A stretch of DNA of 57,554 nt, filler included, from Dugesia japonica (Eukaryota), in the NCBI GenBank assembly GCA_001938525.1. It is 6 parts of 6 records of this genome, joined end to end, with 100 filler letters (N's around TTAATTAATTAA, not from the genome) between each part and the next. Parts side by side here need not be neighbours in the genome. Positions count along the whole stretch, not along the records: positions 47,586 to 57,554 come from MQRL01648147.1; 5 more parts are not named here. One strand, written 5' to 3'. The notes beneath the pieces are model-generated. The model was given only the letters and a program-made list of their open reading frames with translations. It ran no database searches and was not told the DNA's origin. Positions 1 through 57,554 of the stretch are shown here, in pieces. Every line of letters begins with the position of its first letter. The first letter of the stretch is position 1. Position numbers and translations under genes: made by a program.

Positions 1-37
1 AAAAATTCCCCGAATCAACATGTCTATTTAATTTACC

Positions 38-388
38 TCACAGTTTATACTGGCGTTTCAGCCATTTAATACAATATTGACCCCATAGAAATGTCAATAG
101 ATTCTGATACATAAGTTGATTGTATTCGACACGTTGTTGCATACTCTCCAATTTTATTACCAGTAATGGTGGATAAAAAATATACATTGAATCAAATACA
201 CGAATAATATTTGGTTTGACATGAATTGCGATTCAATGCTCACCATCCAAATTTGAGATATGTGTATAGATTACATAGTATCCGTTTTGTAAGAAATCCG
301 GTAATNATTCCAGTGGATACACCCCTTTGAATCGTTTGCTGCCAAAATCACGTCTCAATATTGTTTCAATCTGAAAAGTACTATTAAT
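38..388 (-). pseudogene. Polinton adenain-like cysteine protease
   Basis: Manual translation FKGVYPLEXLP..YYVIYTHISNLDGEH*IAI..VFDS..YPP..YNQLMYQ..LWGQYC; HW is now H-stop and the catalytic CGQYC reads WGQYC. Confidence 0.85.
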
Positions 389-479
389 CAATAAATTCTA
401 TTTAAAAAAAGCAATGCATACTTCATGCTATGCAATACATATATACATGTATGTGTATTTGTATGTATGTATTTATTGT

Positions 480-1612: not shown

Positions 1613-1964
1613 GGTCCATTTCTACTTGAAAATCTGTTTTTAATATTACTTTCTTTTCATCGGAAAATATAAACCAATTATATTTATTAGTAGGGACGGT
1701 ATTTTTAAGTTGAAAACTACTATTTACAATACTTAATTGAAATTTATCTTCAATTTCCATCACTTCTCTTATTTTATATTCAATTTTTGAACCTTTCCGT
1801 ATAGTCTGTGGAAAGTAATTGAAAACAAATTCTGTCATATCAACTTCCCAATGGTCATCTTTTAAATTGATGGGATTCTCATAGTCGACCAAATACTTGC
1901 TCGCATTATTATCAGGTCGAGTTCTTGAACTGCAATTGCTTGGCAAAATTATATAGAAACTCAT
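1613..1964 (-). pseudogene. Polinton minor capsid (penton) N-terminal half, fused by deletion to MCP
   Basis: MSFYIILPSNCSS..PDNNASKY...PINL..HWEV is the typical penton N-terminus; ATG at 1964 overlaps the integrase stop (TAATG). Confidence 0.8.
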
Positions 1965-2200
1965 TATTGGATTTGAGATTCTTGAATCTACGTAGGCTTT
2001 GAATACCCATGCCATTCAACTAGATATTTTTTATATTGTCCTTGACCTTTGGTTTTGAGAATTGATTTAATTCGATATATACTTGGTTTTTCTGGCAACA
2101 CTTGCAATTCTTGCTCATAAAATTTGCCTTGAATAATATTATCATCTTCATCACGTATTACATACATAGTCAACTACGGTCTGATCTTGAGGATTCTTTA
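1964..2200 (-). pseudogene. Polinton integrase C-terminus with chromodomain
   Basis: YVIRDEDDNIIQGKFYEQELQ then YRIKSILK...YLVEWHGYSKPT*I chromodomain (W to TAG). Confidence 0.8.
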
Positions 2201-3233
2201 ATAAAATCAAATAGCTATATACTATTTGATTACGAGTACGATGCATTCCGCCTTGATGAAAAAGATTTTGGGTGATGAAGAACTAAAAAGATTTTTAACT
2301 ATAATATGATGAACTTATTTATTATTATAATCATCACATATGACGATCTCTTAATAATATAATATATTTATTATAATGATTAATTTAAGCATATTGTCAT
2401 CATCATATATGATGTCCTTATTTNNNNNNNNNTTTTATTGATTTTTATTATGATATCATCACTTATGATGACCTCATTTATATAATATTATCATTCATTA
2501 TATCATTCATTTTTTAATAATCAAAAAATAATTATGTCTCATCGAATTGAAAATATTATTCAAAAAGGAAATGGTAAATATATATTTATTTTTATTTATT
2601 TCAAAATTTTATATAGATAAAATATTTAATGATAATGTGGAAATAATTGATTCTGAAAATAAATCAATTCATAATCAAGAGATCATACCAAGAATTGGAT
2701 TACATGAAATTTTAAAAATGAATAGAAACGAAAATGGTAAAATATATTTATTATAATTAATTTTTACATTTTTTTCCTTATAAATGAAATTTTAGAAATA
2801 AATAAGTTTCGAAATAAATAAATGATCGAAATATATCGAAATATAAAGATATAAATTATAAATTTTTATAAATTTTTTATAAATTTTTAAAGATATAAAT
2901 TATGAATTTTTCTTTTTAATAAATATGAATCTTTTTATTATTGATAATAAATATTTTTAACAATTATTAACAATAATTTTTTATGAAATTTCTTTTAATA
3001 TCATTGTTATTACTAAATTATTTATTAATATTTATAAACATAAATATAACTAATTAATGTTAATAAATAGCAGCTTTTTTAATAATAAATACTTTTAATG
3101 AATATTACAATTATTATATATTATTCTAATTCATATTAAACATTATCAACATTTGTCATATCTTATTAATTTAATGAGTTATTTAATTTTTTGAAAAGTA
3201 TGTAATATGAATAACAAAATTTTTATTTAAACA

Positions 3234-3275
<42 letters not shown>

Positions 3276-3902
3276 TTGAAAATTTTTAATCAACTTTTAC
3301 TGAAATCAAAACCAATATCATTATTAAAATACTTATATATAAACAAAACAGTCAAGATAAATCAAGTCTATTAAAGAAAAGAAATAATTTATTATTTAAA
3401 TAAATTAAATTTATTATTCTTTATTTGTTATAGGAAGACTATAGTGTTAATAATAATAATAATAATAATTATTGCAAAATCAGTAAGCTTTTTATTTATT
3501 TCAATTCAATGTAATTTAAATAAATAATATTTTAATTGTTTGCTAAATATGATTGAAAGTTAGTGTACTTAATAACCATAATAACCATAAAAGATATAAA
3601 AGCATAACAGATACCATATATTAAACAAATATAGTCACTATTATTTTATTATTCTATCATTATTAATACATGATTTAGGATTTTAATTTAATTTTTTTAT
3701 AAAAGATTATTATCATCAGATATAAAATACATGTTATTAATGGAATTATATAAATTTGAGATTTTAGAAGAAAAATAAAACAAAACTATTGTCTTTTAAT
3801 TGTTATAATAATTAAATAACAATAAAATTATATTGAAAAAGTTTTTTAGTTATTTTGTTTATTTCAGAATACAAATATACAAGTCCGTTATATTAATTCT
3901 GT

Positions 3903-3903
3903 A

Positions 3904-3969
<66 letters not shown>

Positions 3970-4019
3970 NNNNNNNNNNNNNNNNNNNNNNNNNNNNNNN
4001 NNNNNNNNNNNNNNNNNNN

Positions 4020-4086
<67 letters not shown>
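3903..4086. repeat. (AAT)n microsatellite
   Basis: Pure AAT run spanning a gap; similar runs at about 3232-3273 and 8180-8245. Confidence 0.95.
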
Positions 4087-4087
<1 letters not shown>

Positions 4088-4143
4088 GGTCGAATTTTGT
4101 ATGATTTGATAGTTCAGCTATTAAACATACTAATCTACCTAAT

Positions 4144-7100
4144 ATGAAAAGTAAATTTAGTATAGAAAGGTTGATTGGATCATCATCATGTGATGATGAA
4201 CAACAACTTATATTTAATAATAATAGTGAGAGTAACAAAAATATTAGCATAGAACGGTTGCTTGGATTATCATCACATAATGATGAACAACAACTAATAT
4301 TTAATGATGGAAATAATAAAATCTATGATTCATCGTCATCTTGTTATAAACAATATGACAATGGTCAACAATTTGTAAGAAATATGGAAATAAAACTTTC
4401 TTTTGAAAATCAAAGTAATAAGAGGAGAAGAATAACAAATTTTCATAATGCATGCATTCGGAAATCAGATTTTAATGGAGATTGTGTAAGTCTCCAGTTT
4501 AAGGTGGATGATATGGAAATGAAGAGCATTCAAATTCCTAAAAATATTAAAAATAAAATGGAAGAAGAAGTTGATAAATTTGAAAATTAAATTTGGAGTC
4601 TTTGCCGAATTTGAGAAAGGCAATCAAGAAGATGAAGAAATCAAACAATGGTATTGGTCCTACAAGGCGATGAAACCCTCGGAAGATTTCATGGGAAAAA
4701 TAACTGCAAAAGCAAATGAAGAAATTGCTACATATTCTGAGCTCAGAAGTGGATGGAAAATTAAAANAATATTAGAGCTCAGATTTATTTTGGTAAAATT
4801 TTCGCCAGTAATCTATTTATCTGGCAGATCATTCTTTCAGAGTCCTGCAGCATTAAAACAATCAAAATCAATAGTCAATGTGCACAATAAAGATAATATG
4901 TGTTTTATATATACTGTGCTTGCCACAAAAATATGAACCATATTTTAATGAGTTAGTGTATAATGAGCAGAAGATGCCGATGAAGGTCATCAACATTCCA
5001 GAATTGGAAAGAAAAAATAATCTATCAATCACGGTATTCAAATACAATGATTCGATTGATGTGGATGATGAAATTTCATATAAAAATCCTCATGTGGATA
5101 TATAATAATAATAAACACTAAAGGATGTGTAGTGAATTTACTAGTTTTGGAAAATGGTCGAGGATTTCATTACATGGGCGTAATAAATTTAGATAGACTG
5201 TTAAATTTAAAAGATCAGACACGAAAAATTTGAATTGAAAGAAAATGGTGTTCAAAATGTCTACATGGATTCTGGACACAATCTACATTTGATCGTCATG
5301 TAGCTTTGTGCACTCAAATAACAGAAAAGATAACCTGAATACACAATGCCTGAAGAAAAAGAGTTGGAAAGACCATGAAACCAGCTTTTGTTATTTATGC
5401 AGATATTGAAGCTATCTTAGTACCGGAAGATTACGGTATGGTGAAACACGTACCGATAGCTGTATGAATTTTACTTATTTCCATATTAAATACTACAAAT
5501 AAATGTGAATACTATGCATTTTCTGGGGAAAATTGCATGGTTGAGGTTTTACAGTGTATTGATCGGTTGTTGAAAGATGTAGTGGTACCATGGTACAATA
5601 CAAATACGCATACAGATAGGAACTTGTCAACATTGGAACAAGAAGCGTTCACAAAGAGTATAAATTGTTACATGTGTGGAAATAAAAAGCGAAGTTAGTT
5701 CGTGATCATGATCATTATTCTGGAAAATATCTTGCAGCGACATGTAGTCAATGTAACTTATCACGTAAATCAGAAGAGAGTTGCCTGTTGTGTTTCATAA
5801 CTTTAAGGGTTATGATTCACATCATATAGTCAAATATGCGCTTAATTAATTCAAACATTGGGAAATCAAACCAATCGCTCAAACTATTGAAAACTTTTTG
5901 GCCATGTTTGTACTTGTTGACGGTGTTACAGTTCGATTCATCGACTTTATCTGCAAATCTAGATGGCTGGCCAATAACATCAATAGAGTTTCATCAAAAA
6001 ACTCAAAGAAAAGGTATTTTTCCATACAAATTCGCAACATCAAATGAAATTTAGATAAATCAACCAACATTACCACCACAATGATCTGAAATAACGGAAC
6101 AAGAATATGAAATGGCAAAGGGGGCATGGACTGAATCTGGTTTTAAGAATCTATTAGAATATATGCTTTATTATGTGAAATTGGATATTTATTTACTCGC
6201 TGGTATATTTCAAACATTCCGAGAAAAAGCAATTGACGAGCATGGATTGCAGCCACTTCGATTTGTTTCATAACCTGTACTGAGTTGGTCAAGTGCACTT
6301 AAAACAATGGATCGGTCGATGGAGTTGCTTCAGGATCCAGAAATACATCGATTATTTTAATTGGGTATTTGTGTGGGGATGACATTTGTGAATAGTCTTC
6401 ATGTTCAAGTAGATGAGAATACCTCACTGCTCTATATCAAAATAAATAATTTATATGGTTGGGCATTAACACAGCCTTTGCAATATAAAGATTTCAAATT
6501 TATAGAAAAAGATCAAGTGGAAGAAATATATCAAGAAATGCTATGCAATGATGTCAATTCAGATATTGGATATTTCTTGGAAATTTATTTGGAAATACCT
6601 ATCAAACATCATGATAGGTTTGATCAGTTACCATTGGCTCCAGAACATAAATATCCTCCGGGATCGAAAGTGAAGAAACGGTTGCTGACCCATGAACCAA
6701 AACAACATTACGTTATATATTGGCTTTTATTGAAATTATATTTAAAATTGCGGGCTTGTGTTACTACAGTGCGTAGAATAGTAGAGTTTAAGGAAACAGA
6801 GATATATGAAAGTTACATAAATGCAAATTCAGCGAGATGAGCAGCTTCAAAAACAAAATTTGAAAAGGATTTTTACAAGCTTTTAAACAATGCTCTATAT
6901 GGAAAAACTGTAGAAAATTTGAAAAAAAGAATGAATCTCCAGCTTTGCCATAATGAAAAAAAATTGTAACTTATACCAGCAAAGTTACACTCAAAAAGAC
7001 AATGTATTAGTAAAAACAATATCTGTTTAAATAGACAAAGCTATATTAGACAAGTTGTCTTTAATTAAAGCAAGTTGAGAATGTANCAATTGCAATATGA

Positions 7101-8244: not shown

Positions 8245-8584
8245 NNNNNNNNNNNNNNNNNNNNNNNNNNNNNNNNNNNNNNNNNNNNTTAATTAATTAA
8301 NNNNNNNNNNNNNNNNNNNNNNNNNNNNNNNNNNNNNNNNNNNNAGATGATGATATTTGTTGCTTTCTAGTTTGCTTGATTAAGCAGCCAGTGGATCACA
8401 ACACATTTCAAAGCGGGACACTGAGTCATTTGGGTTGGTCACCTTTGTTCTAGCATTAGATTTTATATTGAATTAATAAAGGTTATTTCACAATTCATTT
8501 AATAATCGTTTTTCAAATTAAAAACTATTTTTATGATATCATTTTAATTTGATTTATATTTTTTTTATTCTAGTGAAAACTTAC

Positions 8585-27999: not shown

Positions 28000-30299
28000 G
28001 ACTTTGAAAAAATTTGATCGAAGCTTTAGTTTTAATGAATTCTGAAAATCGATCAATGGTTACGTCCAACAATTTTTCTCGCAATAATTGTAAATGTAAA
28101 ACCAATTGATTTTAATTAGATTATTATGTAGAAATCTATTGTTGAATTAATTGAAATATCGTTTCTAATGAAGAATATTTAGAAAATATGAACAATTAAA
28201 AAATAATTTTTCATCTTTGAATTTTACAAATAATATCAAAATAGTCAACAAGTGAAAAATTTCTTCGAGTGTAAAATAAACAAAATTCGGTGAATTAAAA
28301 AAATGCCATGAGTAAATAACACAACAAAATAAATAGAATTAAAGAATGTAATACAGTTGTTAAAATATTTCAAATAGTAAAATGATTATCAATCTATTTA
28401 TTCTAATTTCAATAATACCACCGTGAATAGTTATGCTTAAAATGGGCTCATTGAATAATTATNNNNNNNNNNNNNNNNNNNNNNNNNNNNNNNNNNNNNN
28501 NNNNNNNNNNNNNNNNNNNNNNNNNNNNNNNNNNNNNNNNNNNNNNNGAAAATCATTTATATCGTAAAAAATAATTTTTTTTCCAATTCAAGAATTATTG
28601 TGAGAATAATTGTTGGACTTAACTATTAACCTTATTGAGATTTCAATAAATTAAAAGCTTCGATCAAAATATTGTTTTTCTGTCTTTATATAATTATTTT
28701 TTATACTTATAAATTTTTTTTACTATCAAGAACTAAAAAAATAGAAAATAAACCGAAAATCTAGATTTTGATCGAAGTTTTTAATTGAATGAAAATAATT
28801 ATTTGCTGAAGTCAACTAAACAAAGCCAAATATTCGGATTTCAACTACAATTCTTAAATTGAATTTTTACAATTTTAAAAATGTTGATTTTATTTCTAAA
28901 AAATATGCATTAAAATTATTATTTATTTTTATATTTATATTATATTTAAATTATAATTAATTATATTTTTAATATTAATATTTAAATATTGAACAAGAAA
29001 CTATTGTAATATTTATAAATTCGACAGATATTCTAAATTTTAAATATGCGTTTGTCATAGTGTTTTTAATAAATTAATTTAAATTCTTTTCAAATTAATT
29101 TAGATTAAATAATTTTAAATAAAATTTAACGGAAATAATCTAATCTTGCAATAATANNNNNNNNNNNNNNNNNNNNNNNNNNNNNNNNNNNNNNNNNNNN
29201 TTAATTAATTAANNNNNNNNNNNNNNNNNNNNNNNNNNNNNNNNNNNNNNNNNNNNAGGAATAATCCTTTTTCATTATTATTGATGGATAATTGTCGTTT
29301 CCATCATAGATCTGATGTATTATTATTATTATTGAATCAAAATTTTATTTCTTATAAGTTCTTACCACCATTTTTTAGTGAAGTTAAGGCCAAATATAGA
29401 GCTATCACATCCTCTCCAAAATCAAAAGAATAGTTAAAAGAAAGAGTTGAAAATATTATGAGAANNNNNNAAGGTAATTTTACTAGAAGCTTTGAACATG
29501 CCAGAGGTTTATTACCAAATGCTTTGGCAAGACAGCCATTTATTTGATTAAATAAAAGCATGTCATTATATTTAGTTTTATTTTAATAAATATACAATTA
29601 TATTTCAGAATATTTTATAATATCTAAATTTTAAATAATAGTTAATAATGATTTATGTTATGGAATGCACTCAGAATCTCAGGACAATAAGAGCTTCAAC
29701 TTGCATTTGGTTGTTTAATTAAAATATTTTCTTCTTTTATTTTAAGGAATAAAAGAATTTATATTATGGAATTACACTGAAAGTGGTTTGGAAGTATTTT
29801 AATTTTTTTGTCTTTTAATTAAAGACTTGTTGAACAATACAATTTAAACAGACTACACTTTTGTTAATATAATAATGCATCAACATACCATTTCATGCTC
29901 ATCAATTCAATTTACTTGATAATAAGACAACATAAAATATTTTAGTACTTTTAATATAAAAAGATATAACTGAGAGGTAGTCCAAAAAAGTTAATAAATA
30001 ATACACCAGTCTGAGTCCGATGTCCCTTCGGTTGATTGTCGATTTGTGTCATCATAAAATCCATTCTTTATACTTGGCGTGCCCATAAAATTAAAATTAC
30101 AGCGTCATTGTCTCACTTTTGATTGATTCTGCTAATTTTCTGTGTTTTTAGCTGAAAGAACAGCAGTGAATATATCTGAAATTAAATTATTCTCATTCTG
30201 CTAGATAAAATAGTAATTAAGGTTTTTATAAAAGTGACAACATTTATCCATAACTATCAAATTCACATATAAACTAAAAATCGTTTGCTAGCATTTATT

Positions 30300-38700: not shown

Positions 38701-38800
38701 NNNNNNNNNNNNNNNNNNNNNNNNNNNNNNNNNNNNNNNNNNNNTTAATTAATTAANNNNNNNNNNNNNNNNNNNNNNNNNNNNNNNNNNNNNNNNNNNN

Positions 38801-40092
38801 ATAAATTACCCTCCTCCCCCGAGGGGGGGGGGTTCGGAAACACATTACGCTTGAGCTGCGTTTTTTTAGACATGGTTTTTTTTATCCTGAAAGTGTGTAT
38901 GTGTATTTTTAAATTTGGTTGTGGTTGGAAAAAAATTTGGTCTATATATTGTTTAAAGGACTCCTGAGTTTGGATGAATGGTTCGACCTACAAGGGTATT
39001 GGCACACGGGCACAGACGTATGAGTTATCGTATGTAGTTTTTATGGAGGCTGTAGGTTTGTATGTGGTTGATGGAATTTGTTGGTTTATGGTTTGTTGGA
39101 GAGGTAATGTCATGGGAAAGATGTTGGTAGATGTATGTGCATTGATGTTTTATTTTAAGTGCTACTATTGGATTGGTTTATTTTGTAAGTAGTATAAGTG
39201 TGTTCAAATTTTTTTCATGAGTTGGAAGTTGTTATGTGTGGAAAGATTATCAGATTTTATAAAATTTATTTGAAATTTTTCTGTCGGGTGGTTATAACGT
39301 CATAATTTTTTAAAATCTTTATTTGGGTTAAAAATGCAGTTTTTTGCTTAAATTGATGAATTTAATGAAAGTAATGTTATTTTAATGTATTTGATGTATT
39401 TTTGGTTATTTTGTCGGTATTTTAAACATGGAAGGATTGATTTTTAATATTTTCGAACGGAGAAGAGAGGAGTCTTGATATTTTTAAGATATTATTACAA
39501 GAAATTTATGCATAGTATGGGCAGTCTTCACATTTTTAAGATATTGTTGCAAGATATCGGACAGTCTTGATATTTTTAAGATATTTTTAAAAGTATTATT
39601 ACAAGACATTTATGCATGGTATGGACAGTCTTGTTATTTTTGAGAATATTAATCCAAAATATCGGGCAGTTTTGATATTTTTGTAAAGATACTAATACAA
39701 GGTATCGGACAGTCTTAATATTTTTAAGATATTTTTTAAGATATTATTACAAGATATCGGACAGTCTTGATATTTTTAAGATATTCTTACAAGAAATTTA
39801 TGCATGTTATGGGCAGTCTTGTTATTTTTGAGGATGTTATTCCAAAATATCGGACAGTCTTGATATTTTTTAAGATATTATTACAAAATATCGGACAGTC
39901 TTGATATTTATTATTGTAGATATTATTACAATAAATTTATGTATGATATGAGTAGTCTTGATATTTTGCATGTTATGAGCAGTTTTGAAATTTTGAATGC
40001 GGAGCCACTAAATTGAACATAGGGAGCCTCAATATTTAGAATGGGATGGGACAGACTTGATTTTTTGCAAGGTATGAGGCCGTCTAAAATTC
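38801..40092 (+). mobile_element. Another Polinton TIR copy (terminus lost in gap)
   Basis: Colinear with about 14300-15770: C/G hairpin, caagggtattggcacacgggcaca, gggcagtcttgata repeats. Confidence 0.8.
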
Positions 40093-41934
40093 GTAGAAGA
40101 AAAAGAGAAAAGAAAAACTTAGCAAAAATAAACATATTTTATTATTATATTCGTTATTAAAATTATTATTTGTATATAACTAACGAGTGCCATGATTAGA
40201 GGTTGTGCTCCCGGAACGCAGGAAAAAAATTGAAAACGTAAATCAAAAAAATGAATAAATGACAATTAATTGACAGACATAAGAAATCACGAGAAAATAA
40301 ACTCGCAAAAACAACTAAAAAATGAAGGAAAACTAATCGACAAAAACAACTAAAAAATGAATGAAAACTAATCGACAAAAATGAGAGCGTAAATCGACAA
40401 AGGCAGGTGAATGAGTGGATGAAGATATGAAGTGAGTGAAGGATGAAAGTGGAGTCCTTGGCAGAAAATGAGAAATAAATGTTTGCGAGTGATAGAATTG
40501 TGTTTTGATTTTATTAAAGTTCTATGAGAAATTTCAAGTGAAATGTATGCCACTTAGTCGTCGAACATTCTAAATCTGCAGAAGCATTAAAATTTTTAAA
40601 TGAAATTTTATTAAATGTTTCTTATTAATTTTTGTCAGTGTAAAAATCGCAGTTACGGAGTGAATATTTCGTTCTCAAATAATTGTCAGTTGCTGAGAAA
40701 CCATTTACCTATAATGTTTATTAATTTTCTTTGATTATAATCACTTACCGCAGTTAAACTTGTTAAAATTAAGTTATGATTAAACAATTTGTTTTTTTTG
40801 CAGTGAATATATCCAATGAAGAAAAGATGCTGAAGAAAGATGCAACCGCCGCGCAGCAAAGTTGGAAAGAAAAACGTAAGGAATTAAAAAATGAAATTCT
40901 GAGGTTGAAGGGACAGGTAATGAAATCCGCGGCGAAGTACAACCAGATAAAAAAAAGGAGCTGTCCCTTCAGCACCCAAACAGGCTAATAGCGGATATTA
41001 TAAAAACATATGCTGATCGAGAGAGTTCAATAATTGTTTCTTTAAGAACACTCCGATTTAATTACAAGTCGCCAAAGGCGCCAAACGAAGGAATGGAACC
41101 AGCGAAATTTATTAGAATCAATTTTGTTAAATATTTTAATTTGTATTATAAAATAATTTATAAATAGATAAAATTATCATTTTCATTATTTGTAAAAATA
41201 ACTAAATATATATTTAACTTTTTGTAATTTTGTTATTATTCTAAATATTTCGCTTTGTCAATAAAATATATTTTTTATTGTATTTAAAATTAATACATTA
41301 ATTAAAAAGATGAAATTTTAAATAGAATAGACTATAAAATATTGTCAATAAAAAATTTATTACTGTCTCTTCAAATAAATTTTAAATAAAATTAAAGAAA
41401 ATATATAAAAAANTAGTTACGCCATTTAAAATAAAATTTTATTGTTATATATTTTGACGGATTAACTGTNATCATCAGACAAAAATGAAATAAATGAGTT
41501 TATTCAGTTTGTATTATTCAAACAAAGATTAATGCGATTATACTGAATATGAGATGGATATAATTCTTAATTTTTAATTTTTTTTAACAACTTTTCAATA
41601 AAAAATTTTATTTATATAATAATATTTTATTACTGTTACCTATAAAATCAAAGATTTTTTTCCAAAATATTTAACTTTTTTAATTTTAGATTATATAATA
41701 AAATTTTGAAAATAATTTTATTTAATAATATTTAAACTTTTAAAAATTTTAACATAATTAACACATAATTTGTGACATTTGTCATATAATATAATCAATA
41801 TACATATACTATTATTATCATTATTTAAATTTCACCTGAAAATAATAGATATATTTTTTTTCTAAAAGAAATTTACATATAAATGGTTAGATTTTATACA
41901 ATACATTTATTTATTATAATTATATGAATACAAT

Positions 41935-43339: not shown

Positions 43340-44230
43340 AATAAATGTGAGCAGGTCAGAAAAGAATTTAGAAATTGCAAACAAAGATATTATTCGAACA
43401 ATACCAATAACTACACAAGAAGGAATGGAAGTCACGTTAATTCAATTAAAAAAATTGAAAAAGATTGTGCATATAATGAAGATAAAGGCCAATGTAATGA
43501 AGAATCAAATATTTATCAAGACAAATACCCAAAATGCCCAAACTTTGACAGAAGTCGAGATTGTCGGAGCGTTGCATTAAGTATCCAAAAAAATCGCATT
43601 ATTGTAAATTTTAGTAAAAGTAGTATAAATAATTATATAAATAAAAGAAACGAAGATAAACGAGTAGATGAGTACAATGATGTTATCTCATAAGAAGATA
43701 AGTTATGACAAGATGGATGAATTTTCTTAGTAGCCTAGATATGGTATTGGAATTTAGACAATGTGCAAAACATACGAATGCAGATATGCTGTCGAGAAGC
43801 AATTGTGCTACGTGTGTACAATACATAACAGGTCATGAGAATCCAATAGAAGGGAAAATTAAGACAACGAAAATTAATTGTATATCAGGTTCAGATACAT
43901 ATAAATGACAAAGTAACGTAGAAAAAATTGAACAGATAAAGAATGATATAAAAATGGAACATGTAAAAAGTTTAGATTAATAGAAGATATAATAAAAAAG
44001 AAAGACGGTAAAATATGGACCCCGCATAATTTATTGGTGCACACAGGCACGAAAAAAGTGATAAATTATTTGAAAAATGAATATGATATAGAAGATTTGA
44101 GAGAAACTGTTCACAAGGCAAGATGATCGAAATAAATGTGGAAAAGATAAAAATAATTTTTAAAGAGAAGGAATGTAAGAATGATTGAATATACTTTAAA
44201 TATCTGAGAGGTTTTTTAAATTCTTTTTAT
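43340..44230 (+). mobile_element. Deleted Ty3/gypsy remnant with PPT and start of 3' LTR
   Basis: WMNFLSSLDM..HTNADMLSR; PPT aaagagaaggaa then tgtaagaatg at about 44173. Confidence 0.7.
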
Positions 44231-44236
44231 AAATTA

Positions 44237-47200
44237 TGTAACAAGACTTGTCAATAATAATAAGGATTTATTTAACAATGCTATAATTTGTATTATTCCA
44301 ACTAAATTGAATGTTTAAATAATCACTATTTTCTAACTTTCCTCTCCATTGAAATTGAAACTCGTACTGACTTTGGTTTATCCGGAAGCTTCAGTAAGAG
44401 TTGATGAGGATTTAAAAATTTAATAATCGTGTACGGACCTTCAAATATTTATCCACTTTTATGAATATTATTTACAAGAACGTTTCCCATTTCCTACGCA
44501 ACTCGTTTCAGTTCTAGTTTTTTGTCATTAACAACTTGTTCATGATTAGCGGGCTCATTTCTCGACTAATTAATTGAAAATTCAATCTTGGGAATATATT
44601 TATTCCAAGTAAACCTATTCTTATCACTATTAATTGAAGTAACTGTTCTAATTACTATCTCTGCTAAACCATTGGCTTAATGTTGGTAAGATGATATAAA
44701 TTCTTGTTTAATTCCAAATCTTCCACACAACTGATTCATTTTGCTACCTTCCAAAACTCCACCCCGATCAAATAAGATTGATTTTGGTTTTCCGAATCGG
44801 TTAATCCAATGCTTCTTTATTGCATCTGATATTGCTGTTTAATCTTGTTTACTACGAGGTATCAGTTTAAATAGTTTGCTAAATCTATCGGTAATAAGAA
44901 GCAAGTACTTATGATTAGACTTGTACTCAGAAAAATAAGCCACATCTATTAAAATTTGTTCTAGTAGTCAAAATCTTTCTCTAGTTAACAATAGTTCTTT
45001 TGTTCGACCAGTGTAGATCTTTCTTTTCGCACATATTTCACATTTTTGAATTTTGTGTTCGATTTCTCTATTCATATCAAGCCAGAAGTATATCTCTCGA
45101 ATATATTCCATTAACTTCTTGCTTTCCAAATGAAATAGTTTTTTGTGCAAGTATTTAACTAATTTTAGTGAGTAATTTTGTGGTATAACGATTAGTTTCT
45201 TCTCTGATCATCTTTAATTACAATAATCCCAAATAATTTGAATTTATATTATATCTTTGAAATATTTGCTTTTCTTCACTTCAGTAGTTACATCATTATC
45301 CAAACTAGCTTAATATTGATCTTGGTATTCCACATTTGTTTTGTAACTCTTCCATATTTTTGTTATAACATACATTTTCATTTAAACTGTTTATAAATCA
45401 AACTATAGATTTATTCCCTTTACCAGCATGGTGTTTTGTTAAACATTGACTACACATCGTTTCATTTATTCTAAAAAGGCCGTCAGCATTACTGCAATCC
45501 GTTTCTTTCCGATATTCTAAATCAAAATGAAATACAAAAAGATTAGCAAACCAAGTATGAAATTGGGGACTAATTTGTTTATTTGTTTTCTTCATATAAG
45601 TCAAAGCTTTATGGTCAGGCCTTATTTTAAACTTTTTCCCAATAAAATGATACTTAAAATGCATAAAAAATTAAGAATAGCTAAAATTACTTTTCTAGTT
45701 GCACATTAATCTTTTTCATGAGAATTTAAAACTCTCAAAGCAAAACCTATAACTTTTTCATCGCCTTTGTAATCCTTTTGGCTTAGAACAGCTCCAATAG
45801 CTCCAAAACTTGCATAAGTGTTTAGAATCATTTCTTTTGATGGATCAAGAAATCCCAATATTAGTGCAGTGGATAATTCATACTTTAACTTTTAGAAGCT
45901 ATGTTCAGCATCTGTGGACCACTCGATCAATTTGTCCTTTCCTGATATCATATCATACAGTGATGCAGTAATAATTGCATAATCTTTGATAAATCAACGA
46001 TAATTATTAGTTAGTCCCAAAAATGATCTTAACTGCGTAACACAACCTGGAATTGGTGCTTCTGTAATTTTTTTTATTTTATCATCGTTAGTTAAAATTC
46101 CTTTTTTATTAATTGAGTGCCCCAAAAATTCAATTTATCAGTTCCAAATACAAATTTTTCTGGATTAACTTTTAATTTTGATGCATTAATTAATTCAAAT
46201 GCTTTTTCTAATCTTTGATTATGTTNATCAACACTTCTTCCATAAACTAAAATGTAATCCAAATAAACAATTACACCTTTATACAGCATTCCTTTAAAAA
46301 TCAAATTCATTAAACTCTGAAAAGTTGCCCGTGCTGTACATAAACCAAATGCCAATTGATTAAAACAGAATTATCCAATCTTTGTACTAAAAGCTGTTTT
46401 CATTTGTGAATCTTCGTTTAACACAACTTGATAATAAGCTTGTCCTTAGTCTAAAGATGAAAGAATTGTTGATCCATTTAAGATATCCAAAAGTGTGTTT
46501 ATATCAGGTACCGGTAAATAGAGATTTTTTAGTTACTACATTAAATCCTCGAAAATCCAAACACATTCGGATAGTATCATCTTATCTTGTTACTATCACT
46601 AAAAGAGAATTCCATGAACTTTTACATGATCATATAATTTTGGATTCTAACTAATCTTCAATTAATTTATCAACTTTATCTTCAAAATGNATTCGTTGTT
46701 TTCTTGGATTTTGAGAAATTAGAGGTCTATTTGTATTAACATGATGCTTAATNAATGTAGTGATTCCTAAATCAAATTTGAATGCCATAAAAATCGATCC
46801 ATATTTTTTATGAATACACGATATTCTTCCATTTAATTGGCCCTTGGTAACCAAATAACAGTCTTTGAAATAATGATCATTTTTACCACAAATTAAGCAT
46901 TTATTCTTAAGTAGACATTCATTTCGTCTATGACTCATATTACCACAACAAAAGCATGTACCTTGTAGTAAGATTTCATCACGTGGTGGTGCTTTACCCC
47001 TGCATTGATTGTAGTATTTCATAGCAATCCTCTTCATTGATCGTTGTGGTCTATTGGCTTGATGAGAAAAATTCCCATTATTGATCGATTGTGAAAAGTT
47101 TTTATCTCGATCCTTATATGTAGTTGATTTTCAGATTGATTTTTATTTTCAGAAGATTTATATTTCCTGAATTCCTTTGGTGCTCAAAATGTGTCCTCCC

Positions 47201-47482
47201 TTCTGAACGTTGATTATAATATCGAGATTTACTAATCACTTGCGACTATGTTGGTTTCATTACATAAACTTCTCGATGCGGAACCAATTTTTCTAAATTC
47301 ATGGCAAAATCTCTTCTTCTTTCGTCAGACATTAATGGGTCAAGGGCAAAGTATTCACGTAATTGCTTACTCTGTAATCTTGCAGTATAAATGCTCTTGC
47401 AATTTCTTCTTTTGTTAATTTCTTTTGAAATACGCCTGTAACCATTTTTGAACTCGAATCTCAAAATTTCTGTACGTCTCAT
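44237..47482 (-). mobile_element. Decayed Ty3/gypsy (two CCHC knuckles, RT, RNase H, integrase), apparently nested in the previous LTR
   Basis: CFCCGNMSHRRNEC, CLICGKNDHYFKDC, AFGLCTA..VYLD, PDHKAL, CEIC; PPT ggagaggaaag at about 44337-44347. Confidence 0.85.
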
Positions 47483-47585
47483 CTGNNNNNNNNNNNNNNN
47501 NNNNNNNNNNNNNNNNNNNNNNNNNNNNNTTAATTAATTAANNNNNNNNNNNNNNNNNNNNNNNNNNNNNNNNNNNNNNNNNNNN

Positions 47586-49150
47586 ATAAAAATTAAAAAA
47601 TCTCTCAGATATTTAAATCTTTGAATGATTCTTAGACCCCATCTTTAAAACCTTTTTTAATCTTTTCCACAATTCTTTCAATCATCTCCCTTCTGTACTT
47701 TTCAGCAGGTATCGTCTTTCATGAATCTGTTTTATCACCTCGTATGGACCTGTATATATTTCTTTGTCTTTTTATCTGATTTTTACCTTGACTAGCACAT
47801 CATCTCTAACTTGAAAATGTCTCTTTGTTGGTATCATCTTTATCTATGTTTCTGCTAACGGAATATCACTTCAGCTGGACTTAACCCCAAAGTCTTCTCG
47901 CTTGTTGCATGTAGTGTATATTAAATTTCTGGTATTAACTCTGCCCTATGTTTATTCTTTTTATCTTTTAATGTTGCATTCATGTAATATCTGATCATTC
48001 TGAATTGTGGCTCCACTATTCCGTTTGTATTATGATGATATGGACTTGTTTGTCTATTTTATAAATGCTATCTGTTCTCACCAAAAGTCTTTTCCAATAC
48101 AAATAATGTTTAAAATGGTTACAAAAATAATAAATAGCCAATAATTCTTTTCTTGTTATACAATATCCTTTTTCATGAGCTAACATTACATGGGACCTAT
48201 ATGCAATCACTTGTTCTAAACTTCTTTCATCTATTTGCAATAGAACTGCTCCGATAGCATTAAAACTTGCATCTGTATATATTACAAACATCATTTTAAT
48301 ATCTGGAAAGCTCAATATCGGTGCATTTGTTAATCTCATTAAAAGCTTTATTACAATTTTCAGATCACACAACGTTTTTATTATTACTTCCACATAGCTC
48401 TTACAAGCTTCTAGCTTTCTTTGAGTAATTGTTGATAAACTGTTTATAGTATTTGAATATTCCCAAAAAGCTTCTTAAGTTCACACACATTTAGGTCTTC
48501 TAAGGTTTTTTGTTTGATCAGTTCGAACTCCATTCTTGTCTATTTGACTTCTGCTTGCAATAAATGACATTTTTCTGAGTTAATTCTCAATCCTGATTCT
48601 TGAATTCTGTTAAAAATTGGTTTAAAATTCTATAGTGCTGCTCTAAATTTACTGAAAATATCAATATATCATCCATGTATACCATTGTTTCTCTCAATCT
48701 TCCTAACATTGTTGTCATTAATTCTTGAAACGTTTCAGGTGCTGCAGCTATACCAAAAGGCATTCTTGTGAAACAATACTGTTTATATTTTGTAGAAAAT
48801 GCTGTTTTCATTTGTAAATATTTATGTAACGGAACTTGATAATATACATTTCCCAAATCAATAGTACTAAAATATCGTGCATCACTCAAATTGTTTAGTA
48901 TTTCCTCTACATTGGGCATCGGAAATGCCTGTCTTTTTGTGATTGCATTCAGTTTACTAAAATCTAAACAGAATCTAACGTCTTTCCTTTCTTTTTTGCA
49001 AGCATATATTAACGGAGTGTTCCATTGCAAATTGCACTTCCTAATAATGCCATTGTCAAACAAATTCTTGATAGCTTCATCGATCTTATTCTCTGAATGC
49101 ATTGGTTGTTTCCATGGTTTTGTATTTATTGGTTTTTTATTTGTGATTAT
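47586..49150 (-). mobile_element. Ty3/gypsy pol fragment related to the 50317-55048 element
   Basis: IDLGNVYYQ, MPFGIAAAP, YMDD, TDASFNAIGAVL, KGYCITRKELLA. Confidence 0.88.
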
Positions 49151-49479
49151 TGTTATTGTGATTAGTGTTTTTTGTTCAGGAACGTGTCTTGAGCGTTAAA
49201 CTAGGTATGCCTGTATTATTTATTTAAATCACTTTATTCGGAATAACTAAAAGATTGGTCTTCTAAAAATTAAAAGATTTCTAAAACTCACTATGAATTT
49301 CATTTTAAAAAATAAATGTTTAAAATACATTATAAATTTTTATTTGCTAATGAACATAATCAAATGATTTATTTTCAAAAACCGTAACCGTTATTTATAA
49401 TAATAAAATTTGACTTTACGTTACATTAGTTATTTATATTATTTGATACCATAATTGCATTTTTACTAAAACTTTTTAG

Positions 49480-49607
49480 CTGATCTAACTTCATTTTTAA
49501 CTGTAAGTGAAGGGAATAGTTTATTATCATCTTTGGATCAATTAGCTTCTCGAACTGATCTTAAAATTGTGATACCAAAAGGAACGAATTTGGATGCATT
49601 ATTAATA
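49480..49607 (+). CDS. Ionotropic glutamate receptor-like exon (M3 end to S2 start)
   Basis: tttttag acceptor, (A)DLTSFLTVSEGNSLLSSLDQLASRTDLKIVIPKGT, gtaag donor; matches the ANLAAFLTV...S.EDLA.QT pattern. Confidence 0.55.
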
Positions 49608-50316
49608 GTAAGAAAATTTAATTAATTGAAATACTTTCACTATTGAAATTTTTTTGATCACTTAGCTAATGTAATTCATTTTTCAAACCAATAATTTGTA
49701 AAAATTAAAGTGTTAAATTTTTTACAGTATATTCTATATTATCTAAATTTTTTATAATTTGATTAAAATGATATTATCGAAAATTTTATATCAAGAATGA
49801 TCTACTGTACTTACCGATAAATTTTCGAATAAATTAATTATCCAATACCTGGATAAATAAAGAAATATGCGGTGTCTAATTTAAATAAACGTACATACAG
49901 TACATTTCCTTCTTTGGTCCTTTGGCCTTAGGAGTAGGGGAACAGAAAAACAACCCAAAAAACGTTTACAATATATTTAAATAATAAATAATTTATTTAT
50001 AGTTTTTACTAAAACTATTAATTTAATATCGTAATGTTTAAAAAACATTATCCTTTTTAACACAAAGCATCAAGCATTTTCGTTCAAAATTATAGCTTGA
50101 TTTTTCCTATTCTTCTTCAGTTACTCCATAGTTCATCGCTATTCATTTCTGTGTCAATACTTTCTTTTGATCTAAAATTTCAATTCTTGTTTTAATGTGA
50201 GTACAGTTTTTCATTTATGAGATGGTTTTTGAATTATTTATTTAGGTATTGTTAGGTAAGTCTTCAATTGGTAATTGGTTATTCAAATCAGAACTAATAT
50301 GTTTGACATTATTTAT

Positions 50317-53300
50317 TATAAGGGAAACTTTTAAAAAAATTTTAAAAAGGGAATTTTTCATTTTGNTTGAATATTTAAGTTTTGAAAAAGTTTTTGGCGA
50401 AAATTTGGATTTGGAGAATATTGGATTATAAAGTAAATTTTGTATATTTTTATAACATTTTACTATTTTATTGTAATTGATTTTGTAATTTGATTAAGTT
50501 GTTATTAAGTTGTAATTGATTTGTAAATTATAAATATATTTTATTCTAAAGATCTTTAATTGTTTTCAGCTATTTTTGTTGTAATGAATACAAAAGAAGA
50601 AGAAAATATTATTAATGAGGTGCGTATTCCTTACATGGTGGCAGCGGTAAATACCAACTTGATCACTGAACGTCTATTGCCCAAGGTATTTTGTAAGAGC
50701 GAAGATATTGAAAAATTTATTAAAAGGACATAATTATATTTTGACGCGAAAGGTATCAACCAGAAGAAAGAACAGGAGAGACTTTGTTTACTGGATGAAG
50801 ATTTAGGAGAAGATTATGTGAAGACGGCAAAGAAAACGGAAGGATTTCAATCGAGGCTACTATTGGCATTCAAAAAAGAAAAGGATATAGTAGAAGATTT
50901 TCAGAATTTATTAAATTTTAAAAGGGAAATTTAGATGTTGGCGTATATGTAAAGAAAGTGAAGAATCTGGTCGACAAGATATTTGATAACAAAGACTTTT
51001 TAAAGGAGAAATTACTCGCCAAAATGTTAGTATTTTGTTCAGAAAATAGAAAAGTTGAAGAAGACGTGGTACTAAGGAAATTAGAAAAACTGGAAGAAAT
51101 TAAGGAAACTTTAGTGCTGTTAGACCGACGGAGAAAAAGAAAGAACAAATTAATGTTGTTTGAAGTTATGCGCAGGTGGTAAATCGCGAGTGTCAGAATC
51201 CAAAAGTACATGTAAGGGGTACGCAAGTAGATATTAGCAAATTAAACCAACAGTTGGAATGTTGGATATGTTGCAAAGTTGGTCACAGGAGAGAAAATTG
51301 GCCGGTAAAAGAAATATGGGAATGTTGGTCGTGCCGTAGAAAAGGGCATTTGAGTAGAGAGTGTCCAGAAAGACGACCTGTGAGATGTTTTGGATGTGGA
51401 AAAGTAGGACACATAAGAAGATGTTGTCCATAAATGAGATACGGAAGATGCAATAGTAAGGGTCATAGGGCGGAAAACTGTTATGATAATTCGGGAATTA
51501 AACAGATGGGAGACACAAAAGGAACAAGGAATGAGGAAAAGAATCGATATAATCAATTTAATATGATAGAGGAACAATGTAGAGATGAACAGCATGTTAT
51601 CGGTGAGACAGATGACAAGGAAGGAAATACTTTCCCAAACAGGTGGGCTCCATCAGTAGAGGAGTTGATTGGAGCCATCTATTAAGCGAAATCTTTGACA
51701 GTTATCCTCAAGGGGTTGAGCTGTGGGAGAATAGATGGAAAATAGGAAAGAAAGTGTATAGATTTTTGAAGAGAGAAACATTAAGTAGTTTGGATAGTAA
51801 GGAATGGATCGGAGAAATTGAAGGTAGAAAAGAGATAACAATTTCTTATGACAAATTACAAGGCAGACCTAGTGTTTTAGTAACAATTTAGAATGTGAAG
51901 CTAGAATGTTTATTAGATACGGGAGCCCGCATAAATGTCATAAGTAGGAGTTGTCTAAAGAAGTTTAAACATATACATTTGGAAGAATGAGATGACAGGT
52001 TGAGGTGTGCAAATGGCAGTATTTTAGAAACGGCAGGAAGAGTACGTTTGCTTGTTCAATTGGGAGACGACTGCAGAGAAATTACCTTTGTTGTGGCAGA
52101 TAAGGTTTTTCCGGAGATAATAGGGGGTATTGATTTCCAGATGATTTTTGGATTTCATCTGACAGTATAATAATTTGATGAAATTGGACAAATTCTAAAT
52201 AATATTGATGCAAGATTTGGTAGACAAGTGGAGAAAGGAGAACGTTTAAATATAGCGATTGAAACCATGGGAAATAAGAATGACTCAGATTTAATGGATA
52301 TTTGTAAAAAGATGGAAGATGTTTATATGGCGGACAAGTGGGACTTGGGTAAGACACTTTTGGTCAAACACAAGATTAACACTCAAGGAGAACCGATAAA
52401 TATCAAACCCTACAGACAGCCATCACATTTGGAAAGGAAAATTAATGAATCGATTCAGAATTTATTTGATAATAAAATCATTTGTAAGTGTAATTCGCCA
52501 TGGAACACTCCTTTGATTTGCGTATGGAAGAAGGACAAAAAGGACTTTCGACTATGTCTTGATTTTAGACAATTGAACGCAGTTAGGGAAAGGCAAGCTT
52601 TCCTAATGCCAAATATTGGCGAGATGTTGGATACATTGTAGGGAGCAAGATAATTTAGTTCGATTGATTTAAGAAACGCTTACTACCAAGTGGAGTTGGA
52701 AGAGGAGTCGCAAAAAAACTGCATTCTCAACCAAACAGGGACAATACGGTTTTAATCGGATGCCTTTCGGGATAGCAGCAGCACCGGATACGTTCCAAGA
52801 GATGATGACGAAAGTGATTGGAGGAATTGCAGGGGCTATGGTATACTTGGATGACTTCTTGATTTTTTTGAAGAGTAGGAAGCAACACTATGAAATCATT
52901 GACAGGGTATTAGAGGGTATTTTAACAGACGGATTGCGTGTAAACCCTGAAAAATGTCAGCTCATAAGGAGTGAAATTAAGTTTTTGGGATATATTATTT
53001 ACGAGAATGTGGTCCAGACAGACCCGACGAAGATTGAAGCCATAAAAACATTTGAACGACCAAATTTTGTAAAAAGACTACGTAGCTTTCTAGGAATCTG
53101 CAACGTTTATCGAAATTTTATAGAGTATGCAATTAAGGCCAGAAAATTAGAACAATTATGCTGTGGTTCAAGTAACAAAAAGTTGGATTGAACTAGTGAA
53201 TTGAATAAAATTTTTCAAGGTTTATAAGATGCATTAATGTCGGCGCCGATTCTAAATTTCCCAGATTTGAGCAAAGATTTAATTTTAGACACAGATGCTA

Positions 53301-55048
53301 GTTTTGAAACGATTGGAGCGGTATTATCTCAAAAAGACAATCAGGGTAAGGAAAGAGTGATAGCTTATGGATCGCATGCAATGTCGGCACAGGAAAAAGG
53401 CTATTGTATTACCAGAAAGGAATTATTGGTGGTGTACTATTTCTGTGTACATTTTAAACATTATCTTTATGGACGGAAATTTACATTAAGGTCAAATCAC
53501 AAAGCAATAACGTTTATGTTGACGACTAAAAAATCAATAACATCGCAGTTTCAGACTTGGATCAATTACTTAAGCAGTTTAGATATGGTACTGGAGTATA
53601 GGAAAGGCATTCTTCACAGCAATGCAGATATGTTATCAAGACCAGGTTGTGAGCCATGTGTTTAATGTCAAACAATACATGAGGATGCAATGAAAAGAAA
53701 GATTAAAACTAGAACGTTGAATGAAATTTCAGAAGATTGGGATATAAAACTAAGAAACGAAACAGATAGAGATAAGACAAACACAAAAATTTGGATTGTA
53801 GAAGAACAAATGAAAGATAAGATTCAAGAGATACATAAGTTGTTGTGTCACGCAGGTGTGGAAATAACACAAGAATATATGAAGAATATGTTTTAAGGAC
53901 CACAGTTGAGACAACGGGTTCTGGAAGTTGTACGTAGCTGTGAAATCTGTCAGAGAACTAAAGCAGAGGCCGTGGCTTTGAAAGAAGTTACAATGAAATT
54001 GGAGATGTTTAGTTGTTTTGAGGTAGTGTATGTAGATATTTGTGGACCATGGAGAGAGAAAAAAGCAGAAAGAAAAATTTACTGAGAATGATTGATCAGT
54101 ATAGTAAGTATATAGTACTGGTAGCATTATCACGTCAAGATGAAGGAGCAATTGTAGAGTCAATTTTTAAGAATTGGATCTTGCGTTTCGGATGCCCCAG
54201 AGTGTTGCGATCAGATTGTGGAAAGGTATTTGAATCAAAGGTTATGAAAGAATTCGGAGAGAAATTCAATATCAGATTACAAATATTAAGCTCGTATCAT
54301 CATAATACAAACGGACAGATCGAGAGACAATTTTGTACTATACGAGAGTGGTTGATGTCTACAATGAAAGAAAGAGGGACAACAGACTGGACAGATATTC
54401 TACCAGAAATAGAATTTGCTATAAACGCAACGAAACAAAGACTAAACAAATGAGTCCTGCACAGCTAGTATTTGGAAGACATATTAGTAGAGAAAGATGG
54501 TATACGGATCAGCGTACTTATATTTTAAAGAGAGGAGATAAATTGAAACAAAAAGACAGTGCAAAATAAGGGATCGGGTTTTAGTCAAAGCAGAAGTCAG
54601 AGATAAGAATCAGGACAGATTTGTTAGGCCATATCAAGTCATCGCGAAGGTTCATGGGAGAAGATATGTTCTAGAAGCGTAGAACGGCAAGCAGATCGAG
54701 AGAAATATAGAAAAAATTAAAAAAATTCTTAAATGAGGGGGATATAAGGGAAACTTTTAGAAAAAATTTAAAAAGGGAATTTTTCATTTGTTTGAATATT
54801 TTAGTTTTGAAAAGGTTTTTGGCGACAATTTGGATTTGGAGAATATTGGATTATAAAGTAAATTTTGTATATTTTTATAACATTTTACTATTTTATTGTA
54901 ATTGATTTGTAATTTAATTAAGTTGTAATTGATTTGTAAATAATAAATATATTTTATTCTAAAGATCTTCAATTGTTTTCAGTTATTTTTGTTGTAATGA
55001 ACACAAAAGAAAAAGAAAATATTATTAATGAGGTGCGTATTCCTCACA
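50317..55048 (+). mobile_element. Full-length but inactivated Ty3/gypsy LTR retrotransposon
   Basis: LTRs 50317-50635 and 54743-55048, TSD TTTAT, PBS TGGTGGCAGCGG, PPT gaggggga; gag knuckles, LLDTGA, YLDD, TDAS, HHCC and D,D-E integrase; several stops and frameshifts. Confidence 0.95.
50636..50647 (+). promoter_or_regulatory. Primer-binding site, probably tRNA-Leu
   Basis: TGGTGGCAGCGG immediately after the LTR CA is complementary to ...CCGCUGCCACCA. Confidence 0.7.
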
Positions 55049-56487
55049 TTTATTTTTCTACTTCAACTCTAAATTTNNNNNNNNNNNNNNNNNNNNNNNN
55101 NNNNNNNNNNNNNNNNNNNNNNNNNNNNNNNNNNNNNNNNNNNNNNNNNNNNNNNNNNNNNNNNNNNNNNNNNNNNNNNNNNNNNNNNGTATGTTTCCTG
55201 TATTTAATTATTCGTTTATTATGGAATGATATACCAAATATCCAAATTGTTTTTACATTAAATAAATAACAATAAAGTTCAAAACTACTATTATTCAAAA
55301 AGTAATACTTCCCTGATTTCAATCAAATATTGTAATAAAGTAGGTAGATAGTAGCGCATCACCCCAATTTTTTAAAGCAGTTATCGTGCAATCCCCGCGC
55401 CTTTGCGTTGCTAAATGGATTTTAAAAAGTAGATCAAGTTGAGTTTGTGTGTGTGGTTGTGTGTGTGAAAGAATGGTTTTGGGCTCGAAGGGGAGCTGGA
55501 GATCTTAGAAATAATTTTTTGGGGGTTTTTAAGCTTCGATTGTTGTTTGAAACAAATTTGGTCTACACATTGTCTAAAGGACTTATGGGGTGGGATGGAT
55601 GGATTTGACTAGAAGGGTAGTAGCGCCATGTCACAATCGTATGAGTTTTCGTGGCTTGTTTTTCGGGAGGCTGTTAGTTTGTAGTAGGTTATTGGATTTA
55701 GATGGTTGATGTGTTGTTGGAAAGGTAATGTGATGGGAAATATTGGGGATGTCGATTGTGCCAGAATTTTGGATTTTAAGGGCTTTAATTTAATTAGTCG
55801 ATATTTGTAAGTAGTATAAGTGTGTTAAAATGTTTTTTCGGGATCTCATTAGCGATGCAATGTTTCTATAAAAAATATATTAGCATTGTAATTTTTAATA
55901 AAAAACATATTAGCGTTGCAATTTTTAATAAAAGTCTCATAGTTGTTGAAATTTTTAATAAAAAATCTTATTAGCTGAGAGCATTCCTTTACAAAATGAT
56001 AAAAACATTGAACGTTTTTCATAAATTCATGGAACCTTTCCATATATAACTAATAAGTCTATATAAAAACTTATAAGTAAATATTTTTATGATTGTATAG
56101 TGTTAATGAGTATATAGGGTTTATGAGTATATTATTTACATAATTACCTTGTATTATTTACATAAAAACAATGTATTATATAGTTTATGGGAGTTTTTTT
56201 ACATATCAACCATGTAATAAAATTTCACCATACAAAATGCATACAAAATGCATGCAAAACGCTTGCTTGCGTCATGTTCATGAATATTTTAGATAACAAA
56301 TCATATCCTTTAAAAGAAAATACACCCAATCATTTAAATGAAAATTAATAATAACCATTCATTTCCTTTAAAACATGTAACGATCAATAAAAACTAACAA
56401 ATATNGAGTATGTATGTATCGCAGCAAGTATATAAACTGCAGGTTTCGTAAAATAAGTCTCCTTTACAATTCAAAGTTATTATCAAA

Positions 56488-56802
56488 ATGAACCAAATTG
56501 AAAAAGGAATTAAACAAATTTCAGATCCAATTACCATTGGATCAGTTGGCGAAATGAATCAAGGGAAAAGGTAAATTAAAAAATTTGCAGATGACATTAC
56601 CAGTGGATCCGTTGATGACATTCAATTCCTAAGAAGGATTGACAATGATCTATTGAGAAAACATGAGTATGTTGAACTCATTGTCCGATCACTATATATG
56701 GATAAAATTAAGGAAGAATTGAAGATCCAAAAGAGAACTAAATTTATTGCTGTAACTTTATTGACATCCATTGTGATATTTTATTTATTTGGTCGGAATT
56801 AA
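56488..56802 (+). pseudogene. Second copy of the tandem-BH3-like tail-anchored gene (nonsense at codon 29)
   Basis: MNQIEKGIKQISDPI...R*IKKFADDI...LLRKHEYVELIVR...FIAVTLLTSIVIFYLFGRN; same length, 73/104 residues identical to 18379-18693 by hand count. Confidence 0.85.
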
Positions 56803-57000
56803 TGTAGATATTATTATTTTGTTGTTTAATAAATGGATTTGAATAATAATTTGGTTTCTTTCTTGCATTATTTATATAAAAAACTTATATAGTAATATAG
56901 GATTTATTTACATAATAACCATGTAATATGAAGTAGTAATGTAAATGCATGAACATGTTATGTAAAATACAATTTTTCATTTTTGTAATATTATGAAAAG

Positions 57001-57549
57001 TTACCTATTTTGTTTATATATTGTAATACCATTTAGATTGAATATATTTGTTCTTACCCTATAATCATCTGGACATTGTTGTATAAAGTCAAGAAATAGA
57101 TATCCATGTTGTTTTTCCGTGGCATCTTCAAATGATTCAAGAAGAAATTGTCTGTTATTTGGATATGCTTGTCTTGCTAAAAAATCAACAACAGTCTGAT
57201 CTCTAGGAATTTTGAATAGAACCAAATATTATACGTTTAAATTACAGGTTCTATGACTGCCCCCTTGNNNNNNNNNNNNNNNNNNNNNNNNNNNNNNNNN
57301 NNNNNNNNNNNGTCTTGATATCTTTGTGAATAAATTATTTAAATCTTTTTCTTTATGTATCTCCTGATACAGATCATCAACAAAAATAACATCCTCTGGT
57401 CTTAATATTTTGCTCCAATTAGAATCAAAAGCATTTATAACTTTCATTTTAATATTACAAAATTCAGATTTAGTCAGTCCATGTTCCTCATCTACACCTC
57501 TATGCAAGTATAAGTTTTTAAATTTTGACTTGAATAACTTTGATTTCAA
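57001..57549 (-). pseudogene. Polinton A32-like packaging ATPase (C-terminal part)
   Basis: Walker B VIFVDD, LFTKISR, RTCNLN, LFKIPRD, LARQ, DAT..HGYLFLD, RVRTNIF; one in-frame stop at 57229. Confidence 0.9.
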
Positions 57550-57554
57550 TAATT

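Follow-up and report, generated by a model that had tools for sequence, protein, structure and literature searches.

The window analysed here, by which we mean the whole 57,554-nt stretch of Dugesia japonica DNA (assembly GCA_001938525.1), consists of AT-rich DNA laden with repeats. Towards its end lies a broken small gene (copy 2) with homology to an open gene of the same length that is found elsewhere in the window on the opposite strand (copy 1). The positions of both copies and of the features that surround copy 2 are collected in Table 1. In a pairwise alignment the two copies match over their entire length without a single indel, with 263 of 315 nucleotides and 73 of 104 residues being identical, which bears out the initial annotation of a gap-free homologue of about 70% identity. 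The single in-frame stop that had been noted in copy 2 was recovered in the assembled sequence as well, at codon 29 (56572-56574); this position lies outside the best 40 of 553 variant rows derived from the read and contig alignment. The gene had further been described as missed by the ORF track. This holds for copy 2, which is missing from the ORF listing because of its stop, but not for copy 1, which is found in a plain ORF listing. Copy 2 is likely a decayed, dead copy.

Table 1 Features at and around the two copies of the small gene in the window.
Feature	Position	Strand	Basis
Copy 1, open small gene, 104 aa	18379..18693	-	Plain ORF listing; lies in the right arm of the inverted-repeat element 14227-20788
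Element terminus, motif starting AGTAG	55339..55362	+	Same motif at 14227(+) and 14117(-); multicopy depth begins in this bin
Subterminal TIR-related sequence, with 31-bp tandem repeat block 55843-55975	55402..56128	.	Sequence matches
Upstream region common to copy 1	56129..56487	+	85.5% of the 200 proximal aligned nt identical
Copy 2, broken small gene, 104 codons	56488..56802	+	Homology to copy 1
66-nt tandem duplication at the ORF start, codons 1-22 and 23-44	56488..56619	+	Period scan; alignment
Hydrophobic tail behind the basic patch, codons 86-102, predicted single membrane anchor	56743..56793	+	Hydropathy scan
AATAAA, likely polyadenylation signal	56828..56833	+	Also present after copy 1; RNA depth drops past 56798
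Degraded A32/FtsK-type packaging ATPase, 3' part, convergent on the small gene	57001..57554	-	Similarity to a Pox_A32 protein

The block that is common to both copies spans 18279-19291 and 56897-55847, respectively, with 75% identity over 1085 nt, and it includes 640 nt upstream of copy 2. In both copies a motif scan placed a TATA-like site 59 nt ahead of the ATG. At the ORF start, 46-48 of 66 nt are alike at a period of 66, compared to 17-22 at periods of 60, 63, 69 and 72. Distant homologues of the protein contain one 66-nt unit only, and their starts align with Met23 of the window lineage. A separate proposal, that the small gene forms a cassette between direct repeats, was rejected, as the alignment scores of 62 and 49 remained below the shuffle maxima of 73 and 70.

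A motif scan for AGTAG-type termini returned three sites in the window, at 14227(+), 55339(+) and 14117(-). In two DNA runs the contig depth is 41-65 at 55259-55328, jumps to 758-1057 one bin further on and is far higher beyond, so that multicopy DNA starts in the bin holding 55339. The subterminal sequence behind this terminus is 70% identical to 14517-14952 and 75% identical to 38906-39215, and its part from 55843 to 56128 matches both inverted arms of the element at 14-21 kb. On the far side of copy 2, the ATPase remnant is 59% identical to a Pfam Pox_A32 protein in an alignment of 170 residues and 38% identical to the ATPase of a metagenome contig (L005) that also carries polymerase, integrase and protease. 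It contains a stop at 57229-57231 and a gap at 57268-57311, and the window ends inside it. The motif at 55339 and this remnant support the earlier placement of the homologue between an AGTAG terminus and a convergent packaging ATPase. The accompanying description of the element as a bona fide Polinton is likely to be right, but its polymerase, integrase and capsid genes and its second terminus would lie beyond the window. We refer to the element from 55339 onward as a degraded, likely Polinton (Maverick) element. Immediately ahead of its end we observed a 320-nt direct repeat (50317-50636 and 54743-55049, 92%), and by eye the region 44000-55050 holds what we take to be pieces of a decayed Gypsy-like LTR retrotransposon in both orientations.

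Copy 1 resides in another element. The stretch 14227-20788 has long inverted arms, tblastn detected neither an ATPase nor any other core Polinton gene in it, and the small gene is its only ORF of at least 90 aa; its far end is lost in the gap at 20789. Both this element and 38801-40097 look non-autonomous; their long inverted arms are made up of 31-bp and 41/53-bp repeats plus a 163-bp array. The termini at 14117(-) and 14227(+) stand back to back, 110 nt apart, and the one at 14117 may close a degraded Polinton with gene remnants at 1-7 kb. Within window positions 1-7000, tblastn identified an ATPase fragment (2160-2276) and an integrase/chromodomain fragment (2000-2140) of such another degraded Polinton, and by eye the same region presumably includes capsid-, protease-, penton- and polymerase-like pieces. 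Five 100-nt spacers in the window (8245-8344, 20789-20888, 29157-29256, 38701-38800 and 47486-47585) are runs of N around a short palindromic stop-codon linker, artefacts that appear as perfect inverted repeats.

To place the small protein in a wider family, 1.84 billion representatives were searched, which returned 13 clusters at E<=0.001, one of them close (75%) and 12 distant. The distant homologues are 78-96 aa long and 31-49% identical. Over the whole family the size ranges from 78 to 112 aa. A patch of basic residues and a hydrophobic tail at the C-terminus are common traits, and Gly40 and Arg67 do not vary in any of the 14 alignment rows. In copy 1 the tail reaches a hydropathy of 2.18 over 17 residues, and 7 of the 12 residues that precede it are K or R. 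In all 34 proteins examined, which amount to about 15 clusters and not to 34 independent cases, the most hydrophobic 17 residues lie at most 10 residues from the C-terminus; the tail hydropathy is at least 1.9 in 27 of the 34, and 2-8 basic residues precede the tail. With a lone hydrophobic segment at the C-terminus and a soluble N-terminal part, the small protein is predicted to be a tail-anchored membrane protein. In low-confidence structure models (pTM 0.24 and 0.35) a helix and a loop are combined with one long helix. A short soluble helical part, a basic patch and a C-terminal membrane helix also characterize viral tail-anchored membrane modulators and the vertex membrane proteins of PRD1. 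The small protein shares this layout by analogy only, and sequence or fold similarity to those viral membrane proteins was not found in ESM Atlas or in Foldseek searches of viral and PDB structures.

Searches of Pfam, PHROGs, PDB sequences, ESM Atlas and Foldseek (viral, PDB) yielded no usable match to the small protein, and Rfam gave 0 matches. No longer, fused form was present among 7999 candidates, which is weak evidence. Neither a metagenome scan with the window protein nor a scan of genome contigs with the family produced a match, and a literature search, conducted mostly without full texts, returned nothing on the family. The name 'pilus assembly protein TadC' attached to one member is an automatic label that Pfam does not support. 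A 29-residue match on a phage contig (L001, from the viral contigs) was dropped as chance, with no ORF of annotated length being present there; it was the only locus that the viral contigs yielded, next to one confirmed match that came without a locus.

Among the 12 distant homologues, genomic context is readable for one. This protein of 85 aa is encoded on three metagenome contigs that represent a single element (L002-L004). Its gene precedes an ATPase on the same strand by 67 nt, and this ATPase is 59% identical to the one in the window. Relatives of four of the other distant homologues lie on contigs of 14-19 kb. At the DNA level L002-L004 resemble the window only in the ATPase and in poly(A) runs; the likeness of the small gene is thus one at the protein level. 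The ATPase of these contigs additionally matches two more distant elements, L005 and L006 (37-39%). In L005 an ATPase occurs together with polymerase B, integrase and protease, and this links the ATPase to Polintons. Homologues of the small gene in independent Polinton-like elements are hence seen in one element (L002-L004) and in 0 of the 2 distant ones, both of which are partial and more distant, and their absence from L005 and L006 points to an accessory gene limited to a clade.

The convergent arrangement of copy 2 and the ATPase is not conserved. The two genes stand in tandem in L002-L004, and in the window the depth at 56890 amounts to only 25-42, equal to the level of the unique flank. 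Three contigs, among those listed, depart from the window sequence at 56981-56997. The convergence seen in the window is probably a local feature, and the dip in depth at 56890 could also stem from divergence in AT-rich DNA. Distant homologues, one of which adjoins a related packaging ATPase in an independent element, support the small gene as a likely real, clade-limited accessory gene family of Polintons that has no annotation. The earlier claim of a real Polinton gene is sustained on these grounds, whereas the argument drawn from the copy pair is weak.

Several further observations were made on the metagenome contigs. TBP homologues are encoded at L002:1281-1718(-) and L005:11565-12122(-) (Pfam TBP E 4.8e-16 and 1.3e-36, respectively) and share about 30% identity. 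As a map label, TBP already appears in the accessible part of PMC8502044 and is hence not new, while its recurrence in two distant Polinton contigs is notable. A second small ORF at L002:890-1219(+) likewise has a basic patch and a hydrophobic tail; it was rejected as a family member since it is not homologous (probability 0.1). L005 and L006 are Polinton contigs of eukaryote type that are filed under a bacterial metagenome-assembled genome and are likely misbinned.

Between the two copies in the window, signs of coding constraint are weak at most. The dN/dS ratio is 0.56 (Nei-Gojobori; dN 0.161, dS 0.289), with a bootstrap interval of 0.30-1.09 that reaches 1; 95% of the bootstraps fall below 1. 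A dN/dS near 1 along with divergence equal to that of the non-coding flanks had been named as the outcome that would speak against selection, and in part this is what we find: identity is 85.5% in the proximal 200 nt upstream and 87.5% in the 80 nt downstream, compared to 83.5% in the ORF, with 79.5% and 73.3% in DNA farther upstream. Silent changes are not in significant excess, with 14 seen versus a mean of 10.9 under random placement of the 52 substitutions (P 0.17). The many conservative changes that had been put forward as evidence carry little weight, as they make up 13 of 30 (43%) versus 37% by random placement (P 0.19). A conserved Asp motif, both residues of which were said to be kept, was not found either: of the 14 family rows, 4 have Asp at position 35 and 1 has Asp at position 54. 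Three of the four Asp residues of copy 1 are retained in copy 2. The sole significant sign of constraint in the copy pair is the deficit of indels, of which there are 0 in 315 nt of ORF versus 14 in 671 nt of flanking DNA (Fisher p 0.007), or 5 in 280 nt when the proximal flanks alone are considered (p 0.023).

According to contig depth in two DNA runs, the small-gene family is multicopy in Dugesia japonica. Transcription was followed in one oligo-dT RNA run, about a quarter of which was read, at 80% likeness. Over 56239-56798 first mates reach a depth of 14-48 on the minus strand versus 1.4-5.9 on the plus strand. Past 56798 the RNA depth is below 3, with DNA contigs still being deep at 56799-56868. 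If the usual library convention for strand is assumed, the RNA is a sense transcript that ends just beyond the stop codon. The ATPase part exhibits the same mate bias as the small gene and would be covered by antisense RNA under that assumption. Among 1608 aligned RNA reads, 1243 are less than 90% alike and 5 are at least 99% alike, and the reads at ORF rows differ from copy 2 in at least 4-15 further positions. This divergence indicates that the RNA stems from other copies, and other members of the family are likely transcribed. RNA cover sets in at about 56240, already ~190 nt ahead of the TATA-like site, which makes that site a candidate promoter only. The highest RNA depth (up to ~240) was recorded in the subterminal stretch 55399-55888, with a mate bias opposite to that of the small gene and mostly from diverged copies.

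We consider it probable that copy 2 is the stop-interrupted accessory gene of a degraded Polinton, and that its intact kin act on host membranes as tail-anchored proteins in the period of element activity. In such a scheme a Pol II transcript would arise from the subterminal region and end near the AATAAA, and the hydrophobic tail of the product would be inserted into a membrane after translation. The cytosolic helix-loop-helix might then bind a host partner through the conserved face around its invariant Gly40 and Arg67, the host membrane being the putative site of action for as long as the element is active. A short tail flanked by basic residues may point to the mitochondrial outer membrane or the ER as the target membrane of intact members. 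Selection on the family would be a legacy of the replication of active elements, and copy 2 would have been drifting since its insertion. At 14 ORF positions among the best 40 of 553 variant rows, a selected and best-supported subset, copy 2 differs from most of the aligned copies; 11 of these copy-specific changes replace a residue and 3 are silent, which matches the neutral share of 79%. Copy 2 itself shows little sign of selection, and its copy-specific changes fit drift after insertion. Together with the stop at codon 29 and the stop in the ATPase, the 11 replacing changes among the 14 listed are signs of decay.

A role in the virion or in packaging, with the small membrane protein holding the A32 ATPase or the capsid under assembly at a membrane, could explain why the small gene adjoins the ATPase in the two elements whose context is readable and encodes a single predicted membrane helix. 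Tectivirus PRD1, which has small membrane proteins at its packaging vertex, serves as the model for such a tether. We nonetheless judge this role unlikely: the orientation of the small gene and the ATPase differs between the two elements, their junction in the window appears near single-copy, the ATPases of L005 and L006 have no homologue of the small gene beside them, and copy 1 is retained in an element without an ATPase.

In the strongest form of the initial interpretation, copy 2 could be live or have been under selection until very recently, its stop being either a misassembly or a mutation of very recent origin. The lack of indels, the distribution of dN/dS bootstraps and the fact that the stop was not seen in reads among the best 40 of 553 variant rows are compatible with this idea. 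It becomes quite improbable, however, in light of the predominance of replacing changes among the listed copy-specific ones, the stop in the neighbouring ATPase and the RNA reads, of which only 5 in 1608 approach copy 2 and those at ORF rows do not. Finally, it is hardly probable that the ORF is a passenger of the subterminal repeats, a captured host or other gene or a chance frame that was copied along with the arms and is unused by the element. Flanks conserved to the level of the ORF, the location of copy 1 in a non-autonomous-looking element and the non-significant silent excess would fit a passenger. They are outweighed by the resemblance to 12 distant clusters, which is one of proteins, the gene having no DNA match between L002/L003 and the window, by the independent Polinton context and by the failure of any named cellular family to match.

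In the accessible part of PMC8097293, accessory regions flank the core genes of Mavericks, terminal motifs are reported and copies are mostly degraded. Like the accessory ORFs described there, the gene studied here is a small ORF between a putative terminal repeat and core genes, and an AG-initiated terminus as well as stop-degraded copies are further features in common. The terminus in the window reads AGTAGR-TAGATAG, compared to (AGT)2 or (AG)3 in the vertebrate elements of that source, and the dN/dS of 0.56 in the copy pair is far from the core-gene omega near 0.001 given there. The word 'transmembrane' is absent from its main text as far as accessible, and the available portion of 10.64898/2026.10.13.758929 makes no mention of transmembrane genes.

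For adintoviruses, the accessible part of PMC8502044 lists the membrane-active accessory genes PLA2X, GasderminX and Cupiennin in addition to unnamed Adintoc families. The small gene resembles these accessory genes in its size and in its location near an FtsK/A32 ATPase, and some of them are predicted there to be membrane-active. A Pfam search gave no match between the small protein and any such family, and a tail-anchored layout is not described in that part of the source. The small-gene family may already be among its Adintoc families.

Varied accessory genes are known in Polintons, so that one more family is to be expected, and the broken copy 2 alone adds little. A bolder proposal, to which we give little credence, is that a clade of animal-type Polintons possesses a conserved tail-anchored tether of packaging or capsid assembly to the host membrane, its gene having been amplified on non-autonomous elements and being still transcribed. 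If true, the tether would suggest that Polinton virions, like those of the tectivirus relatives, pass through a membrane step as they form. What matters beyond the single locus is a family with a predicted membrane anchor that is kept across elements, with proteins about one third identical, and for which poly(A) RNA from one host spans the ORF. This family provides a tractable handle on the contact between Polintons and host membranes.
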